A stretch of 64,000 nt of DNA from Escherichia phage teqdroes: the sequence record NC_054932.1; one strand, given 5' to 3'. The translations under genes were made by a program, and so were the position numbers. Of this stretch, positions 1,402 to 56,082 are shown one piece after another. Below the pieces are notes generated by a model. The model made no database searches. It saw only the letters and a program-made list of their open reading frames with translations, and had not been told where the DNA came from. Numbering within the stretch: the first letter of the stretch is position 1; the number at the start of each line of letters is the position of its first letter.

Positions 1402-3174
1402 TTAATTAACTCCAGTCGCATCAAATACACCAGGAGCAGTCGTGCTCGTTACGGGTGTCATATTATGAACGACAGTATTTTTCTTAATAACATTATTAGT
1501 ATTATTGATTGAAGGAGATGCTTGTTGAACAGGAGCTTGCTGTGCTTTGTTCTTTTCAATCACCTGGACTTGTTTCGCTTCTGGTGATTTAGCAGAAGTT
1601 TCAGGTTTGGCATTAGGCTGATTTTTCTTGAGCTCTTGATAAGTAGCATCAATTTTAGAAAATCTAGCAGCAAGTTCTTTTTTAACTGCCGGTGAATTAT
1701 TTAAATCCGGGTCATCCATCCGTTTTTTAAGGTCTTCATAGGCAGCTTCAACTGATTTAACCGTTGAGTCTTTACTCATATCAGCTGAATCAGCATATTT
1801 TTCAAAGCGAATCATTGCGGCACGGGCTTCATTAGCCTTCATTAAAGCATTTTTTCTTTCTTCAGGTGAAAGTTGCTTTAATTTTTCTTCTTCTGCCGCA
1901 CGCTCTTCGTCGGTAGTTAGTGCTTCTTTATTATCAACCCCACGAATCCAATTAGATGCACGAGTTTTCCAATTAGCAATTTTATCTAATCCTTTTGCTA
2001 TCGGACCAAGGTCTCCATTCATTCGTTTATCTTGATAATTTGCAACTTTTTCCTGGTCTTCTTTATTGAGAGATGCTCCAGTAGAATTTTGGAAATTTTC
2101 TAATGCTCTTCCTTCTACTTCATCAGCAGTATCCTTCATACCAGGAATGACTCGAAGAATTGCAGCAGATAATTTAGCCATACCTAATTGAATAAGTTCA
2201 CCTAAATTAAAAAGAACACTTCCGAGTCCTTCAACAATAGCTGCTGTCAATCCACCCCAATCTCCCGCTTCCCAAAGTTGTTTAATTTTATCAATAGAAT
2301 CAAAGATGCTCTGTAATAAAGGACCCCATGTTCCGGTTTCGCTAGAGAATTTAGTAAAGTCAGTATTAAATAAATCCCAGGCTTTTGAAAATTTATCTGA
2401 CCAATATTTAAAATGAACCATCAGCAAGTCTATTCCAATAACAACAGCCAATATCATTGCAGTCATTTTAGCAGCTTCAATAGCAGCACTGATGGTGTAC
2501 TTAAATAACATGCTTGATATTTTATCACTAATTGAAATGGATTTCTTAAATCCAAAATCAACTGTCTTTGTTAATTTATCTAAAGCTTGAGATAATTTTA
2601 AGTTAAATGCTTCTTTTTTCTGTTTTTCTTCTGGTGATTCTTGCTTTGGCTCAACTGGCTGAGGGGTAGGGAAAAAATCAGCGTCAGGATCATTATTAAC
2701 TGCTTCGGGAGCCGGTAATAAAGGACCCACAGATTCAGCAGTATCATCCTCAACGACTTTAACAGGAATAGCGCTTTCAACTGTAGCTAAACTAGTCCCA
2801 GTCTGTTGAATTCCAGCTGTCTGAATTTTTTGTTCTAATAAACTCGTTAATTTATCTAATTTGCTTCCGAGTGATTCACCGATTTCTTTATTAATATTGT
2901 TGCCAATTTCGACAGTTTCAGCAATTAACTCAGAACCGGCAGTAGTATCACTCACTGCGCTTTCTACGTTACCAATTGCTCCAACTATTTCATTCGATTT
3001 TTCTTCGACAGTTTGAGCTATTAATTCAGAAGCAGCTTGAGTATCATCCAATTTCGTAGATATATCATTAAGTCCAGATAAAGTGTTAGAAGCAGATTTA
3101 GCCGCTTCCTGTGTTGGTTTATTATCTGAAATAACTTTTCTACGCATCGTTTGCATTTCTTGTGGCTTTTTCAT
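1402..3174 (-). CDS. 29: baseplate hub / tail length determinator gp29
   Basis: 590-aa ORF, T4 gp29 length and position; long helical Ala/Glu/Lys-rich regions. Confidence 0.85.
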   Translation of the reverse strand: MKKPQEMQTMRRKVISDNKPTQEAAKSASNTLSGLNDISTKLDDTQAASELIAQTVEEKSNEIVGAIGNVESAVSDTTAGSELIAETVEIGNNINKEIGESLGSKLDKLTSLLEQKIQTAGIQQTGTSLATVESAIPVKVVEDDTAESVGPLLPAPEAVNNDPDADFFPTPQPVEPKQESPEEKQKKEAFNLKLSQALDKLTKTVDFGFKKSISISDKISSMLFKYTISAAIEAAKMTAMILAVVIGIDLLMVHFKYWSDKFSKAWDLFNTDFTKFSSETGTWGPLLQSIFDSIDKIKQLWEAGDWGGLTAAIVEGLGSVLFNLGELIQLGMAKLSAAILRVIPGMKDTADEVEGRALENFQNSTGASLNKEDQEKVANYQDKRMNGDLGPIAKGLDKIANWKTRASNWIRGVDNKEALTTDEERAAEEEKLKQLSPEERKNALMKANEARAAMIRFEKYADSADMSKDSTVKSVEAAYEDLKKRMDDPDLNNSPAVKKELAARFSKIDATYQELKKNQPNAKPETSAKSPEAKQVQVIEKNKAQQAPVQQASPSINNTNNVIKKNTVVHNMTPVTSTTAPGVFDATGVN

Positions 3175-46595: not shown

Positions 46596-46627
46596 GTTTA
46601 CACGGGGTTTTAGTAGTGATACTATTA
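46596..46627 (+). promoter_or_regulatory. early promoter, part of the repeated promoter/RBS cassette
   Basis: GTTTAC then GTGATACTAT; identical downstream 55 bp repeated at 46913. Confidence 0.55.
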
Positions 46628-46661
46628 CCCTATCAAAACAAATGTGAAATTGGAGAATAAA

Positions 46662-46895
46662 ATGAAAACGTATCAAGAATTTATTGCTGAAGCTGCTGAT
46701 GTAAAAGTTGAGTTTATTTACATTGGTAAGAAAGATAAAATGGGCGAAATGCCTCATGGAGTTCTTCGTGATGCATTAGATAATTTCGGTCAACTCGGTG
46801 GTGAAGAGTTTGGTGATTATTTTGTTATCTATGGACCAGAAAAAGTCATCGAGAAATGGGCTGATAAATATAAATCAATTTTTCGTAAAAAATAA
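46662..46895 (+). CDS. internal-protein-like small protein with capsid-targeting-type N-terminus (MKTYQEFIAEA)
   Basis: ATG 46662 after GGAG; 77 aa; the track ORF begins upstream at a GTG. Confidence 0.6.
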   Translation: MKTYQEFIAEAADVKVEFIYIGKKDKMGEMPHGVLRDALDNFGQLGGEEFGDYFVIYGPEKVIEKWADKYKSIFRKK

Positions 46896-46934
46896 GTTTA
46901 CTTTTAGATAGGGTAGTGATACTATTACCCTATC
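46896..46934 (+). promoter_or_regulatory. early promoter with the -10 in the loop of a perfect 9-bp hairpin (GATAGGGTA...TACCCTATC)
   Basis: Read from sequence. Confidence 0.55.
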
Positions 46935-46961
46935 AAAACAAATGTGAAATTGGAGAATAAA

Positions 46962-47147
46962 ATGAAACGTTGTGAATTAATTCGAAATGTTGCTATTGCA
47001 ATTTCTGCTTCCGCTTTTAGTTTTTCAATGTTTGTTGGATTTATATGTGGATTATTGACTACAGCAGAAAATGTGTTTTCACTTGTAGTAGCATTTTTAA
47101 TTGGTTTAATTGCTATTGTTATGGATAAAATTTCTAAAGGTGAATAA
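46962..47147 (+). CDS. small hydrophobic (membrane) protein, 61 aa
   Basis: ATG 46962 behind the same RBS cassette; two hydrophobic stretches. Confidence 0.5.
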   Translation: MKRCELIRNVAIAISASAFSFSMFVGFICGLLTTAENVFSLVVAFLIGLIAIVMDKISKGE

Positions 47148-47945: not shown

Positions 47946-48018
47946 TGGGAATTAGCCAAGTTGGTAAGGCACTGGATTTTGATTCCAGGATGCAAAGGTT
48001 CGAGTCCTTTATTCCCAG
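47946..48018 (+). tRNA. tRNA-Gln: tRNA-Gln (anticodon UUG)
   Basis: Cloverleaf folded by hand; acceptor TGGGAAT/ATTCCCA; CCA not encoded. Confidence 0.75.
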
Positions 48019-48019
48019 C

Positions 48020-48106
48020 GCGAGAATGGTCAAATTGGTAAAGGCACAGCACTTAAAATGCTGCGGAATGATTTCCTTGTGGGTTCGAGTCCCACTTCTC
48101 GCACCA
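48020..48106 (+). tRNA. tRNA-Leu: tRNA-Leu (anticodon UAA), long variable arm, CCA encoded
   Basis: Cloverleaf folded by hand; acceptor GCGAGAA/TTCTCGC. Confidence 0.75.
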
Positions 48107-48111
48107 AATTT

Positions 48112-48185
<74 letters not shown>

Positions 48186-48231
48186 ATTTATGACTCGTCG
48201 TGAGACGCTCAGTTCTTTATTAGGGACTGAT

Positions 48232-48840
48232 ATGCATTTTTATCTTTATAAAATAACAAATAAAATTAATAATAAAATTTATATTGGTGTGCATTCTACC
48301 GAAAATTTAGATGATGGATATATGGGTTCTGGTAAATTATTAAAAAGAGCCCAAGACAAGTATGGTATAGAAAATTTCTCTAAAGAAATATTAGAGTATT
48401 TTGATGATAAAGAATCTATGCTTGAAGCCGAGAAAAATATTGTCACAGAAGAGTTTTTAAATAGACCAGATGTGTATAATTTAAAACTTGGCGGAGAAGG
48501 TGGATGGGACCATATAAATAATTATCCTATGACAGATCAGCAACGCGAATTAATTTCATTGGGTGTTAAAAAGGCACATTCTAACGGAAAATTAAAAGGA
48601 TGGTCTTCAAATGGATTAATGAAGAATGGCTTTGCTGGTAAAAATCATTCTCAAGAAGCTAAACGTAAAATAGCAAAAGCAAACGAAGCAAAAGTTTCTG
48701 CGGATGAAAGAAAAAGAAGAATAGAAATTTCTAAATTATATGATTTTTCTAAGCGTGGTGAATTATCTAAATATGCTAAGCATATTGGCGTAAGTCATAC
48801 TCAAGCAAAAAGAATTCTAAATCAAATTAACAATATATAA
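48232..48840 (+). mobile_element. segB: GIY-YIG homing endonuclease (SegB-like) inside the tRNA cluster
   Basis: FYLYKITNKINNKIYIGVH...YMGSG GIY-YIG motif; track ORF opens at 48190 but ATG 48232 has an AGGGA ribosome-binding site. Confidence 0.75.
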
Positions 48841-48846
48841 ATATTT

Positions 48847-48936
48847 GGAGGCGTGGCAGAGTGGTTTAATGCACCGGTCTTGAAAACCGGCAGTCGCTCC
48901 GGCGACTCATAGGTTCAAATCCTATCGCCTCCGCCA
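48847..48936 (+). tRNA. tRNA-Ser: tRNA-Ser (anticodon UGA), long variable arm, CCA encoded
   Basis: Cloverleaf folded by hand. Confidence 0.75.
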
Positions 48937-48942
48937 GTTTTT

Positions 48943-49018
48943 GCTGATTTAGCTCAGTAGGTAGAGCACCTCACTTGTAATGAGGACGTCGGCGGTTCGA
49001 TTCCGTCAATCAGCACCA
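48943..49018 (+). tRNA. tRNA-Thr: tRNA-Thr (anticodon UGU), CCA encoded
   Basis: Cloverleaf folded by hand. Confidence 0.75.
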
Positions 49019-49019
49019 A

Positions 49020-49094
49020 GGCCCTGTAGCTGGAAGGTTCAAGCAAGCGACTCATAATCGCCAGATGGTGGTTCAATTCCACCCAGGGCCACCA
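49020..49094 (+). tRNA. tRNA with CAU anticodon (Ile2/lysidine-type or Met)
   Basis: Cloverleaf folded by hand; identity between Ile(CAU) and Met cannot be decided from sequence alone. Confidence 0.6.
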
Positions 49095-49106
49095 AATTAT
49101 GAATTA

Positions 49107-49193
49107 GGGGAGTTATCCCGTAGAGGTAGCGGTGTGGACTGTAAATTCATTGTCATTGCGACTCGGGTGGTTCGACTCCACCACTCCCCACCA
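49107..49193 (+). tRNA. tRNA-Tyr: tRNA-Tyr (anticodon GUA), type II long variable arm
   Basis: 87 nt with CCA; anticodon loop CTGTAAA; T-arm GGTGG-TTCGACT-CCACC; acceptor GGGGAGT/ACTCCCC. Confidence 0.55.
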
Positions 49194-49197
49194 ATTT

Positions 49198-49272
49198 GGA
49201 TGTGTAGCTCAATGGTAGAGCGATCGCCTGTTAAGCGATTGGTTATAGGTTCGAATCCTATCACGTCCGCCA
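49198..49272 (+). tRNA. tRNA-Asn: tRNA-Asn (anticodon GUU)
   Basis: Cloverleaf folded by hand; anticodon loop CTGTTAA. Confidence 0.6.
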
Positions 49273-49386
49273 AATTTGTGACAACTGTCACATTAATATC
49301 TACTTGACGCGATTATAGGGGTTGAACTGATCACTCTTCTCTTAATTTCGTGTGAAGACATCTTGATTGTTGGAGTAGGTATTAAT

Positions 49387-49462
49387 GTGGCCGTAGTTCA
49401 GTTGGTAGAACTCGAGATTGTGATTCTCGTAGTCATGGGTTCGACTCCCATCGGTCACCCCA
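49387..49462 (+). tRNA. tRNA-His: tRNA-His (anticodon GUG)
   Basis: Cloverleaf folded by hand; anticodon loop TTGTGAT. Confidence 0.6.
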
Positions 49463-49466
49463 ATTA

Positions 49467-49542
49467 CGGGGCATAGCTCAGAAGGAAGAGCAAGGACCTT
49501 CTAAGTCCTAGGTCGTAGGTTCGATCCCTACTGCCTCGACCA
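49467..49542 (+). tRNA. tRNA-Arg: tRNA-Arg (anticodon UCU)
   Basis: Cloverleaf folded by hand; anticodon loop CTTCTAA. Confidence 0.7.
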
Positions 49543-49560: not shown

Positions 49561-49911
49561 ATGAAAGGTAATGTTTATTTAGTAGTTCATGATTTAACAT
49601 TTTACTTCAATGAATATGAAAAACATATCTCATTTCGTGAAATTAATTTACTTTATCAACACGCGGATTATATTTATATTCAAAACGAATTTGGTCATTG
49701 GCAATTTCTCAAAAATCGTTCATTTGGCTTAGATGGTTACGAATACTTTGAACGTAAAGACCTTTTAGATAAAATTCCGTTATCTACGCAATATCAAAAT
49801 CACAAATCTTTATATAAATGCCGTCCAATTCGAAATGTTGAATCCGCGTATGAAGCAATTGATTTATGGCGTGAACGCCGTAAACAGATTGATGCTTTAA
49901 AAGAATATTAA
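49561..49911 (+). CDS. hypothetical protein
   Basis: 116-aa ORF directly downstream of the tRNA cluster. Confidence 0.5.
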   Translation: MKGNVYLVVHDLTFYFNEYEKHISFREINLLYQHADYIYIQNEFGHWQFLKNRSFGLDGYEYFERKDLLDKIPLSTQYQNHKSLYKCRPIRNVESAYEAIDLWRERRKQIDALKEY

Positions 49912-49914
49912 GAA

Positions 49915-50248
49915 ACCGGGTCGCTACCGGTAAGTCGTCGGACTGATGTTCCCTGAGTAAGGAATTGCGTTAATAATCTTTGCGTTTATTGATGCCCTCT
50001 TACATCACAGCAGAAACGGCGCACCGAATTATCGATTCGAGGAAATATCTTTGCCGTAAGCCGAGTAGCGTTTTTGACGGAACGTTCGGATATGGTCGAG
50101 ATATGGCCTTTTAAAAATATTGAGTAGCGTCAACTGCTTAATAACCGGGTTCGAATCCCGGCGTTTCGTACAAACACTTGCCTTAGCAGGTGGAACCCCG
50201 ACAAGGTTGCCGCAAGGCTTAGCCCCGACCGAAAGGTTGGGGCTTTTT
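49915..50248 (+). ncRNA. candidate stable small RNA region (compare T4 species 1/2 RNAs), ending in a rho-independent terminator
   Basis: About 330 bp with no convincing ORF; tRNA T-arm-like CCGGG-TTCGAAT-CCCGG at 50145..50161; hairpin plus T-run at 50221..50248. Confidence 0.35.
50221..50248 (+). terminator. rho-independent terminator AGCCCCGACC-GAAA-GGTTGGGGCT plus T5
   Basis: Read from sequence. Confidence 0.65.
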
Positions 50249-50250
50249 GG

Positions 50251-50258
50251 TATAAATA
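50251..50258 (+). promoter_or_regulatory. late promoter core TATAAATA upstream of the IP-like ORF
   Basis: Exact motif about 37 nt before the ATG at 50295. Confidence 0.5.
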
Positions 50259-50294
50259 AGTATATTAAAACCACGAATTAAAACAGGAAATAAG

Positions 50295-50768
50295 ATGAAA
50301 TCATATGCTCAATTTTTAAATGAAGCGGTGTTAAATGAAGCATCTAGCACCGAAATTCAAGCTGTCGCAAAAGCAGCCATTGCCGCGGGTAAATATTCCT
50401 ATAAAGATGCTTCCGATGAATCACGATTCCAATTTGCTCGTGATATGAAAGCCGAAGGATTTACAGGGAATGCAGTTAGTATGGCCTGGAAAAGTTTAGT
50501 TGCTACTGGCGCTGCTTTTGCAAAGGCTTCAGGTAAACCTGCTCCTAAAGCAGATCCTAAAGCTACACAAGAAAAAAATATTGTTAAAGGAATTATCTCC
50601 AAATATGAAGCTATCCTTAAAGAGCTTTTAGTAATCAAAACTGAAGGTCAAAAGTTAGCTCGTGCTTATAGTTTCAAAGATAACCCACATGCTCACTCTC
50701 TTGAGTATGTTGAAGACATCCAAAAAATTATTAAAGACCGCATTTGGTCTGCTAAACAAATCAAATAA
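50295..50768 (+). CDS. internal-protein-like protein (157 aa) with capsid-targeting-like N-terminus MKSYAQFLNEA
   Basis: N-terminus resembles the T4 internal-protein targeting sequence with L-x-E sites; bracketed by homologous terminators. Confidence 0.5.
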   Translation: MKSYAQFLNEAVLNEASSTEIQAVAKAAIAAGKYSYKDASDESRFQFARDMKAEGFTGNAVSMAWKSLVATGAAFAKASGKPAPKADPKATQEKNIVKGIISKYEAILKELLVIKTEGQKLARAYSFKDNPHAHSLEYVEDIQKIIKDRIWSAKQIK

Positions 50769-50775
50769 CATTCTT

Positions 50776-50803
50776 AGTCCCAACCGAAAGGTTGGGACTT
50801 TTT
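50776..50803 (+). terminator. rho-independent terminator AGTCCCAACC-GAAA-GGTTGGGACT plus T-run
   Basis: Homologous to the 50221 terminator with compensatory stem changes. Confidence 0.65.
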
Positions 50804-50936
50804 GGTATCTAGGCCTTTCTGGGCCTCTCTAGGCATCATTTAGTTTCTACCCTTTATAATATATTATCCTATCTTTTAATTGCCCCTCCTGACCCTAGAA
50901 TTCCCTAAAACTTTTTAAAAATTTTTTCACAAAACT

Positions 50937-50968
50937 GTTTACATCCCTTTTCTTCCATGGTACTATAC
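50937..50968 (+). promoter_or_regulatory. early promoter (GTTTAC ... TGGTACTATAC)
   Basis: Read from sequence. Confidence 0.5.
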
Positions 50969-51009: not shown

Positions 51010-51273
51010 ATGGATAATTACGGCGAACTGTTCAACTTCTTTATGAAATGTGTTTCAGAAGATTTCGGTCGTACAGTGAATGATATTAAAGTTATCGGTC
51101 CTGATCATCCGATGTTTGAAACTTATGCGGTAATGGGCAATGAAGACGGTCAGTGGTATACTGTAAAGGTTGTGATTAACATGTTCACTGCTGAAAGTTA
51201 TGTTAAACTGTCTTCTAAAGTTTACCATGATAACGACGAAATCGCAGAAGAATATTTCAATAATATGAAATAA
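51010..51273 (+). CDS. hypothetical protein
   Basis: 87-aa ORF. Confidence 0.5.
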   Translation: MDNYGELFNFFMKCVSEDFGRTVNDIKVIGPDHPMFETYAVMGNEDGQWYTVKVVINMFTAESYVKLSSKVYHDNDEIAEEYFNNMK

Positions 51274-51721: not shown

Positions 51722-52315
51722 ATGAACACACTGAAGAAAATTGTTGAGTTTATTCGCACTAAACTTGGTTCTGCTATGGCTAAAAATCTATCTGTTGAAG
51801 AACAGTATACTGCTGCAGCAGCAAAACTACTTGATAAGATTAAAGATCTAAAAACTGCTTCTGTTAAATCTATTAATGAAGAAAAGCGTATTCGTGAACT
51901 TATTGTCGAAAAGAATAAGCAGGCCGAATCAAAAGAGCGTGAAATTCGCAAGCTTCTTTCGGAAGGTCAAGATGTAACAATGCATGCTAAACTTGGTTTA
52001 CTATATCGTCGAACAGCTGAGCAGTTGACTACTAAAGCTGATGGTTATGCTGAAATGCGAATTGAAATCGCCAAGAAAGTAGTTGAGTTAGATGATGCTC
52101 GCCAAGAACTTGCAGTTAAATTGGAATATATCCGTGAAACTCGCGCCGCGAATGCCCTCGGAATTAGTACTGCCGATGATGTAGTTGAAATTGCAGCACT
52201 GACTAAGGTTGATATTGAAGATACTCTTGCTCGAGTTGAAACCTTTAATGGTAATATTTCTGGGGTTGAAACTACCTCTGCCGATGTTCAGGAATATATT
52301 AATTCTCTGAAATAA
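51722..52315 (+). CDS. hypothetical coiled-coil protein
   Basis: 197-aa helical ORF followed by a GGGGC-UUCG-GCCCC hairpin. Confidence 0.5.
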
Positions 52316-52356
52316 TGATAAGGGGCTTCGGCCCCTATTACTTGGAGTAAATAGGA

Positions 52357-55182: not shown

Positions 55183-55599
55183 ATGACTCGTATTAATTTG
55201 ACTTTAGTATCTGAACTTGCTGATCAACATTTAATCGCAGAATACCGTGAATTGCCGCGTGTTTTTGGTATAGTTCGTAAGCATGTGGCAAACGGTAAGC
55301 GCGTTAAAGATTTTAAAATATCTTCTAAATTTATTTTAGGTTCTGGTCATGTTACTTTCTTTTACGATAAGTTAGAATTTTTGCGAAAGCGTCAATCGGA
55401 CATTATAACGGAATGCTTAAAACGCGGGTTCAGTATAAAAGATACTGAAGTTCCTGACATCAGCGATATTCCAGTAGAATGGAAAAATGATTATAATCCA
55501 TGCAAATCAGCTATTAAATTGAGTCAACAACGACTTGATGAAAAAATTTTAATGAAACCACATTGGTATAAGTATTACGGTAAAAATATTTACATTTAA
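55183..55599 (+). CDS. denV: endonuclease V, pyrimidine-dimer DNA glycosylase
   Basis: 138 aa, [17 protein letters not shown]...; recognised as T4 DenV-like. Confidence 0.9.
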
Positions 55600-55608
55600 A
55601 GGAAACAT

Positions 55609-56082
55609 ATGAAAACATATCAAGAATTTATCACTGAAGCAGCTATTAATTCTCAAATTATTGCTGAATCTTTTACTGATCTTTTGAAATTTAAAAAAGG
55701 TCAAAAAATCACTGCTGTATTGGATGATGGTACAGAAGTTGAGATGGATGTACAGGGATATAATTATGCAGTAGATGGAAAACTGTATAATAAATCTCAT
55801 GCTAAATTTGATTCATTTGACGACTTTGTTAATACAGTTGAAGATGAAAAAACTCGTAGATCCATTGCAACTGGTGATGCTAAGGTTCTTATGGCACATG
55901 GTCATGAACGCATTCGCGCTAAACAGAATAAAATGGGTGAAGATAATTTTGCATTAGTTGGTTATCAATCTGGTAAACAAACTTATGGCTATCAACGTAC
56001 TGCTACCATGTATAACAAAAATGGTAAAATTGCCTTTGTGAATAGTAAAGGTTCTATTCAGTACGTTAAATCGTTCAAATAA
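55609..56082 (+). CDS. internal-protein-like protein (157 aa) with canonical capsid-targeting N-terminus MKTYQEFITEA
   Basis: N-terminal 11 residues match the T4 internal-protein targeting sequence; AAGGA ribosome-binding site. Confidence 0.6.
   Translation: MKTYQEFITEAAINSQIIAESFTDLLKFKKGQKITAVLDDGTEVEMDVQGYNYAVDGKLYNKSHAKFDSFDDFVNTVEDEKTRRSIATGDAKVLMAHGHERIRAKQNKMGEDNFALVGYQSGKQTYGYQRTATMYNKNGKIAFVNSKGSIQYVKSFK

Follow-up and report, generated by a model that had tools for sequence, protein, structure and literature searches.

A candidate internal-protein cassette between two copies of a terminator in Escherichia phage teqdroes

Introduction

How does a small gene come to occupy a site in some T4-like phages and to be missing from the same site in their close relatives? 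We examined this question in Escherichia phage teqdroes, in a stretch of 64,000 nucleotides (nt) from record NC_054932.1 that we call the window. Between the genes rnaC and e.8 the window holds an open reading frame (ORF) of 157 amino acids (aa), termed ORF157, which is framed by two near-copies of a single transcription terminator. We conclude that positions 50254-50808 are probably an autonomous late-gene cassette of the internal-protein type, which sits in a variable rnaC-e.8 site and turns over through the repeats at its two ends.

Host defences meet internal proteins before any other phage molecule. Ip1, Ip2 and Ip3 of T4 act as inhibitors of GmrSD (type IV restriction) enzymes, each against a different one (PMC12373910). 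Internal-protein genes share a leader and have been assigned to two highly variable loci (Repoila et al. 1994, as relayed in PMC2839356 and PMC4122927), which PMC12373910 words as 'the two Ip loci'. According to PMC2839356 and PMC4122927, these genes are flanked by homologous sequences resembling PeSL (promoter-early stem-loop) motifs that are thought to mediate shuffling; PeSL cassettes themselves excise by recombination between their flanking motifs (PMC2839356).

Results

Two copies of one terminator frame a late gene

A first-pass annotation of the window, made from its letters, had placed an ORF between a terminator with a late promoter on one side and a second terminator on the other, and all of these features lie where it had put them. 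The features of the cassette, of rnaC and of e.8 reported here are all on the plus strand. A repeat search delimited two direct repeat copies of 36 nt, at 50218..50253 and 50773..50808, the first of which consists of CTTAG, the upstream hairpin and TTTTTGGTAT. The copies are identical at 33 of 36 positions, and their similarity runs beyond the stems. A degenerate 33-nt pattern has exactly two sites in the 64 kb, namely these two repeats, and none was expected from 100 shuffles.

Inside the repeats a terminator scan located T1 (50221..50249) and T2 (50776..50804), hereafter the upstream and downstream terminators or hairpins, each with a 10-bp stem, a GAAA loop and a T5 tract. A terminator consensus scan read the hairpins themselves as AGCCCCGACCGAAAGGTTGGGGCT at 50221-50244 and AGTCCCAACCGAAAGGTTGGGACT at 50776-50799, both followed by TTTTT, and their folding energies were −20.3 kcal/mol (z = −3.5) and −18.5 kcal/mol (z = −5.3), respectively, relative to shuffled sequences. 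The upstream one is annotated as a terminator in phages fPS-90 and fPS-2. Both bear the sequence hallmarks of intrinsic (rho-independent) terminators: a G+C-rich stem-loop, a U tract directly behind it and a stem that is maintained. The upstream terminator would end the tRNA/rnaD/rnaC transcript, and the downstream one would halt the late transcript of ORF157 and insulate the e.8 genes, which an early promoter is predicted to drive.

A motif scan found a T4-type late promoter, TATAAATA, at 50251..50258, 36 nt before the ATG of ORF157 (50295..50768 in the ORF list), and a Shine-Dalgarno sequence, AGGAA, can be read at 50285..50289, 5 nt before the ATG. The late promoter straddles the edge of the repeat: it is formed at the joint between repeat and cassette because the repeat's final TAT supplies its initial three bases, and AAATA is the start of unique cassette DNA. 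Conservation of this junction, GGGGCTTTTT(G/A)GTATAAATA, extends over the loci of Tequatrovirus, of Mosigvirus-type phages and of Jiaodavirus, and the annotation of fPS-90 has a predicted late promoter at the equivalent site. The motif is also enriched in the window, with 26 occurrences against 9.6 expected. As predicted from these features, ORF157 would be expressed late, at the time when proheads are being built, as is characteristic of internal proteins.

Occupied and empty sites in other phages

Escherichia phages RB18 and vB_EcoM_R5505 (R5505) share 98.8% identity with the region, which matches 768 phage records, nearly all from Tequatrovirus and its relatives. The window is a Tequatrovirus close to RB18. 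We place ORF157 between e.8 and rnaC (species 1 RNA), the last small RNA gene of the tRNA cluster, because of the alignment to T4 and the annotated order of the homologous stretch of RB33: tRNA cluster, segB, tRNA-Arg, rnaD, rnaC, a hypothetical protein (RB33_134) and e.8.

Six phages (T4, T2, T6, PST, ACG-C40 and pSe_SNUABM_01) have an empty site, with one repeat copy, identical outer junctions and no gene. In T4 the spacer between rnaC and e.8 is 284 nt long; the left junction of its single copy is that of the upstream terminator, and its right junction (TTTTTGGTATCTAAGCC...) is that of the downstream terminator of the window. The earlier description of the gene as a cassette between homologous terminators is thus borne out by the 36-nt repeat and by these single-copy sites.

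The occupied sites fall into several states. ORF157 stands alone in the window, RB18, RB33 and Yersinia phage fD1, and is followed by a second cassette with a 187-aa gene, ORF187, in fPS-90 and ime09. ORF187 alone is found in ESh24, in Mosigvirus ESh27 and in the metagenome contig L091; the left joint of this state, rnaC-hairpin-TTTTTAGTTTGAATC, recurs unchanged as the internal joint where both genes are present. In L013 and L016, ORF157 alleles of 75-83% identity are followed by a membrane-protein gene and then by another copy of the hairpin, and in L131 the membrane-protein gene is alone at the junction. A 208-aa gene, ORF208, lies behind the same hairpin and TATAAATA in L126, and both ORF208 and the 184-aa ORF184 lie directly after a terminator copy. 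Different cargo, for which a search had been proposed, exists at this junction as 187-, 208- and 184-aa genes. Rough frequencies, from 60 records sampled with a spread over the ranks, are of about 7 empty sites, about 21 with ORF157 only, about 8 with both genes and 2 with ORF187 only. By tblastn, ORF187 occurs in 165 records.

IMG/VR scans gave few T4-like contigs, the search for encoding contigs yielded one place only, and a metagenome scan with the hairpin core CCGAAAGGTTGGGNCYTTTT returned more than 120 matches of which about 10 were T4-like, the core being too generic. In one IMG/VR contig (L015, about 2990-3110), just the first ~30 nt of the membrane-protein gene lie between the terminator of ORF154 and a second CCGAAAGGTTGGG hairpin, a remnant resembling a scar that a deletion has left at this joint.

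History of the hairpin copies

In most relatives the two hairpin copies are identical or differ by 1-2 nt. Three patterns speak for recombination between the copies. The stem variants GACC and AGCC are found at the upstream position in some phages and at the downstream position in others (RB33 versus L005 and L042), and in L013 the copies on either flank have one lineage-specific form in common (GGCCCTTCC...GGGCC). Two empty-site phages carry the variant AACC, elsewhere seen only in downstream copies; alternatively, this could reflect parallel mutation.

A syntenic homologue of ORF157 is present in Jiaodavirus KpV477, just after the tRNA cluster and before an e.6-like gene. Its hairpin has a different stem (AGCCCTGTC-TTCG-GACGGGGGCT) and the same tail and promoter (TTTTTAGTATAAATA). 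Furthermore, the ORF157 alleles of Tequatrovirus and Mosigvirus-type phages differ by a synonymous divergence (dS) of 1.3-2.3, which is saturated. The syntenic homologue and the saturated dS therefore indicate that ORF157 is an old resident of the site. Most likely T4 lost the gene, and the state of T4, T2 and T6 would be explained most simply by precise deletion between the repeats. The KpV477 homologue (L019, 3495-4030) is interrupted in frame by TAA in place of AAA and has been annotated as a pair of short coding sequences; it is a probable pseudogene or sequencing error.

Selection on the stem

The first-pass annotation had regarded the differences between the two hairpins as compensatory and both hairpins as being under selection. 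There are three differences, all in the stem. Two of them make up a true double change, from pair C3:G22 to T3:A22, which is compensatory as claimed, whereas the third, G7 to A7, is one-sided and turns a G.U wobble into an A-U pair, so that the claim does not extend to all three. Among 13 distinct hairpin copies, 91.5% of cells are paired, and the stem is thus maintained across variants; the two central stem pairs tolerate U.U. Pair 3-22 is C-G in 10 of these copies, G-C in 2 and U-A in 1, the U-A of the window being the rare form.

For the downstream hairpin, pair 3-22 is C-G in RB18 and KMB42, a C.A mismatch in R5505 and T-A in the window. The R5505 hairpin lies at 724-747 (L142), and its counterpart is 50776-50799 in the window. 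R5505, the nearest relative, has the natural single-mutant, uncompensated intermediate of the compensatory substitution. The intermediate and the variants at pair 3-22 therefore lend direct support to selection on the hairpin, and on this point the annotation was right.

ORF157 and its leader

ORF157 begins with MKSYAQFLNEAVLNE and is arranged as a leader resembling a capsid-targeting sequence (CTS), a helical N-domain, a Pro/Lys-rich linker and a helical C-domain. Leader comparison assigned codons 1-15 (50295..50339), MKSYAQFLNE|AVLNE|A, to the CTS-like part, as had been proposed from the N-terminus alone. Its first 11 residues, MKSYAQFLNEA, are identical to MKTYQEFIAEA of T4 IPII and IPIII at 6 of 11 positions, with 3 conservative replacements. 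The leader, which is of the type and of the ~10-11 residues known from T-even internal proteins, fits within the spread of those annotated (T4 IPI-III; RB33 Ip5, Ip7 and Ip9; Ip4), examples being MKTFKEFTSTT for IPI and MKTFKEFINEA for Ip7. The T4 prohead protease, gp21, cleaves after an L/I-x-E motif. The leader of ORF157 has two L-x-E motifs, FLNE|A and VLNE|A, which are candidate cleavage sites, and its AVLNE segment is an indel between ORF157 alleles. After cleavage the mature protein would be small and basic (isoelectric point 9.5), like IPII and IPIII.

A similar leader (M-K/L-x-F/Y-x-E/D-F-L-x-E) was found in every family member inspected, down to 34-40% identity and including other genera. 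The other cargo of the site has comparable N-termini, MKTYAEFLTEA in ORF187 and MYTFNEFLAET in ORF208, so that 3 of 4 cargo types carry a CTS-like leader of the MK[ST]Y..FL.E kind.

Relatives of ORF157 were detected by tblastn in 510 phage records, all annotated as hypothetical. The ratio of nonsynonymous to synonymous substitution (dN/dS) between alleles is 0.05-0.08, with the C-terminal half most constrained; ORF157 is therefore a real gene under strong purifying selection. It belongs to PHROG 2280 (unknown function), which also matches ORF187 and a Klebsiella phage relative, and a profile search of 1.84 billion representatives gave only 13 clusters, none annotated, in which all proteins inspected share the leader type. 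An AlphaFold2 model is all-helical with a mean confidence (pLDDT) of 71.7: a confident N-domain spans residues 18-75, the Pro/Lys linker at residues 82-93 is disordered, and the C-terminus folds as a helical hairpin. In profile-profile and BLASTP comparisons, only the leader aligned between ORF157 and T4 IPIII, and no similarity to IPI-III was detected beyond it; the same two methods aligned the leader alone between ORF157 and ORF187, and their homology is not established. The motifs DTPDLY and DRIWS.K.IK and the N-domain motif MY.ID.SS recur in varying combinations in ORF208 of L126, P0015, P0011 and ORF187. The leader-bearing proteins at the site look mosaic, which suggests domain shuffling within PHROG 2280, the bridging motifs being suggestive only.

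Only three ORFs in the whole window begin with a CTS-type leader. One is a 77-aa internal-protein gene at 46662..46895 (MKTYQEFIAEA, PHROG 8111) in the 57B-tRNA.4 locus. It is flanked by perfect 55-nt direct repeats, 46613-46667 and 46913-46967, each of which holds a promoter -10 region, a 5' leader, a ribosome-binding site and ATGAAA, and which as a pair are a much better recombination substrate than the two terminator copies around ORF157. A third leader-bearing ORF, 55609..56082 (157 aa, DUF7412, PHROG 3155 'internal virion protein', Ip4-like), follows a denV-like ORF at 55183..55599 and has the upstream and leader sequence aatatttacatttaaaggaaacatATGAAAACATATCAAGAATTTAT in common with T4 ipII and ipIII.

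Packaging, turnover and their alternatives

In the reading that we favour, the 10-15-residue leader would target the ORF157 protein to the prohead scaffolding core, and the prohead protease would cut it off after an L-x-E motif. The remaining basic protein of ~15.5-16 kDa would be packaged and then injected together with the DNA. With T4 Ip1, Ip2 and Ip3 as analogues, it would probably neutralise a host defence, which is the most speculative step. The two terminators are direct repeats; therefore, homologous recombination between them would delete the cassette precisely and leave one copy, as in T4, T2 and T6. The same hairpin may serve as the joint for gain or loss of the neighbouring cassettes (ORF187, ORF208 and the membrane-protein gene), and the outcome would be a third hypervariable site of the internal-protein type.

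Several observations weigh against parts of this reading. The longest exact run shared by the repeat copies is 14 nt, poor homology for T4 recombination, and the rnaC and e.8 flanks, 90-99% identical over hundreds of bases in all loci compared, could alone carry exchange between co-infecting phages. Most of the alternative cargo has a different terminator at its end, and the hairpins that close ORF187, ORF208 and the Mosigvirus-type alleles are unrelated to the repeat. The hairpin family comprises 518 places in 420 records, with at most 2 per genome (2 in the window) and all at this locus; it is therefore a local joint and not a dispersed or genome-wide mobile element. As to the protein, the leader and the T4 CTS that has been tested disagree at 5 of 11 positions, Pfam has no family for ORF157 and so offers no functional clue, and Foldseek comparison of the model with BFVD and PDB retrieved nothing beyond its own family. 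Packaging support comes from one proteome, that of fD1, the paper on fPS-2/65/90 containing none. The fD1 homologue, g140, differs from ORF157 by one residue and was flagged as particle-associated by LC-MS/MS of virion preparations. The fD1 list is non-stringent and counts 113 'particle-associated' proteins, among them non-structural ones such as thymidine kinase, DenV and NudE. The fD1 data therefore demonstrate expression and co-purification, not packaging, for which they are weak evidence.

A rather unlikely account is that the cassette turns over between co-infecting phages through ordinary homologous recombination in the long flanks, perhaps stimulated by double-strand breaks that a nearby homing endonuclease of SegB type makes, and that the likeness of the two terminators is a by-product of local duplication and gene conversion. 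The similarity of the flanks and the short exact identity of the repeats speak for it, as does a segB-like GIY-YIG ORF (48190..48840) only 1.4 kb upstream. SegB causes the tRNA region to be inherited preferentially in mixed infection (PMC2330249), and SegB breaks together with UvsX/UvsY-dependent recombination rearrange this region at short homologies (PMC13096335). Flank recombination, however, shifts whole alleles, and leaves unexplained why empty sites have exactly one repeat copy with both outer junctions, why the joint of the ORF187-only state lies inside the hairpin and why polymorphisms are common to the upstream and downstream copies. The two mechanisms are not mutually exclusive, and the segB-type endonuclease upstream is a possible additional driver of exchange under turnover through the repeats as well.

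It is considerably less probable that ORF157 encodes an ordinary late cytoplasmic or assembly protein, unpackaged, whose likeness to a CTS arose from shuffling of the 5' ends of genes. The divergence of the leader from MKTYQEFIAEA and the contaminants in the fD1 preparation would fit such a protein, and the curators of RB33, who labelled Ip4, Ip5, Ip7 and Ip9, left the ORF157 counterpart unlabelled. Yet the gene has a dedicated late promoter, its product was detected in particle preparations, and the leader is kept across the whole family as well as in the unrelated-looking ORF187 and ORF208, which is the pattern expected of a functional signal.

That the two hairpins are independent, convergent terminators with GNRA loops is effectively refuted, and we rejected chance resemblance: the generic core would allow it, but identity continues outside the stem, 5' into CTTAG and 3' into TTTTTGGTAT, no chance matches are expected in the window, and the copies are nearly identical in most relatives.

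Discussion

Relation to known systems

The arrangement that we favour, a late cassette of internal-protein type between terminator repeats, resembles the T-even internal proteins (T4 IPI-III; Ip4-Ip13 of the RB phages) in its MKTYQEFIAEA-type leader ending in L/I-x-E. It also resembles them in that ORF157 is small, basic, non-essential-looking and present or absent among close relatives, and in having homologous non-coding blocks on both sides, with unrelated-looking proteins that share the leader only. In contrast, ORF157 lies at rnaC-e.8 and not at 57B-tRNA.4 or e-denV, the two polymorphic loci described for such genes, and beyond the leader it has no sequence similarity to IPI-III. Location is a criterion of locus rather than of function, and the ORF157 site is itself polymorphic. 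The flanks also differ: those of T4 ipIII and ipII are early-promoter stem-loops with a shared 5' leader, whereas those of ORF157 are a strong terminator with a late promoter.

PeSL cassettes (Arbiol et al. 2010, PMC2839356; Comeau et al. 2014, PMC4122927) likewise have a stem-loop terminator beside a promoter, repeated around a small accessory gene. As with PeSL, the motif stands on both sides of the ORF, relatives have a single motif and no ORF, and homologous recombination between the flanking motifs is the proposed mechanism. The differences are that the adjoining promoter is of the late TATAAATA type with no -35/-10 pair in the repeat, whereas PeSL promoters are sigma-70-like and early; that the repeat is 36 nt compared with ~100 nt in PeSL; and that it is confined to one locus with at most 2 copies per genome, whereas PeSL are scattered through hyperplastic regions. 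Lambdoid morons share the plan of a promoter-gene-terminator unit between two conserved genes, but the flanks of ORF157 are homologous repeats, and morons are not thought to move via conserved flanks (PMC2839356).

That internal-protein genes are shuffled by way of homologous regulatory flanks has been on record since 1994, as reported in the later papers that cite that work, and the novelty here is modest. What would be new is an unannotated third site of internal-protein type, with flanks made of a terminator and a late promoter. The accepted picture of T-even genome plasticity is unchanged; a new site is added to it, with flanks of a new type. Natural isolates at this site show all the states that recombination at a short regulatory repeat should produce, and the site also offers a compensatory change in a terminator stem, caught in the act.

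A wider reading, which we offer tentatively and lean somewhat away from, is that the Tevenvirinae have a third internal-protein hot-spot, as yet unrecognised, at rnaC-e.8, with mosaic PHROG 2280 cargo serving as injected counter-defence and the joint acting as a late-type analogue of PeSL. Its cargo would be ORF157, ORF187, ORF208 and their relatives in Klebsiella and Yersinia phages, as one mosaic family, and the 3' end of the hairpin (…GGTAT) would complete TATAAATA whenever a cassette starting with AAATA… joins it. T4, T2 and T6 happen to lack these proteins, which would therefore never have been studied. If ORF157 and the other leader-bearing cargo are packaged, hundreds of sequenced therapeutic and environmental T4-like phages hold an extra injected protein without a counterpart in the model phages, and these proteins would form a concrete set of candidate host-range determinants.

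Neighbouring genes

The rnaC gene (50032..50170), the last gene of the tRNA/small-RNA transcription unit, was located by alignment to the rnaC genes of RB33 and T4, the latter being 139 nt as annotated at NC_000866 70908-71046; its trailer sequence is GGTGGAACCCCGACAAGG. The left flank of the site is 98% identical to T4. Rfam gave no match at either hairpin or at rnaC or rnaD. The right-hand conserved flank is the e.8 homologue (51010..51273), identified from the ORF list and by alignment to RB33 and T4. A promoter scan found an early, sigma-70-type promoter-like site for it at 50938..50966 (TTTACA, 17 nt, TACTAT), and the fPS-90 annotation has a predicted early promoter at the equivalent place before e.8.

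The tRNA cluster at 47946-49542 comprises 10 tRNAs (Gln, Leu, Gly, Ser, Thr, Met(CAU), Tyr, Asn, His and Arg), and the segB-like ORF lies between tRNA-Gly and tRNA-Ser; T4 by comparison has 8 tRNAs, with segB in a different position. An ORF of 116 aa (49561..49911), corresponding to 'RB69ORF150c' of the ime09 annotation, separates tRNA-Arg from rnaD, two genes that are neighbours in T4. On the far side of the site, a GC-rich hairpin, AGGGGCCGAAGCCCCT, at 52321-52336 stands just past an e.6-like ORF (51722..52315) and can be read as a minus-strand terminator.

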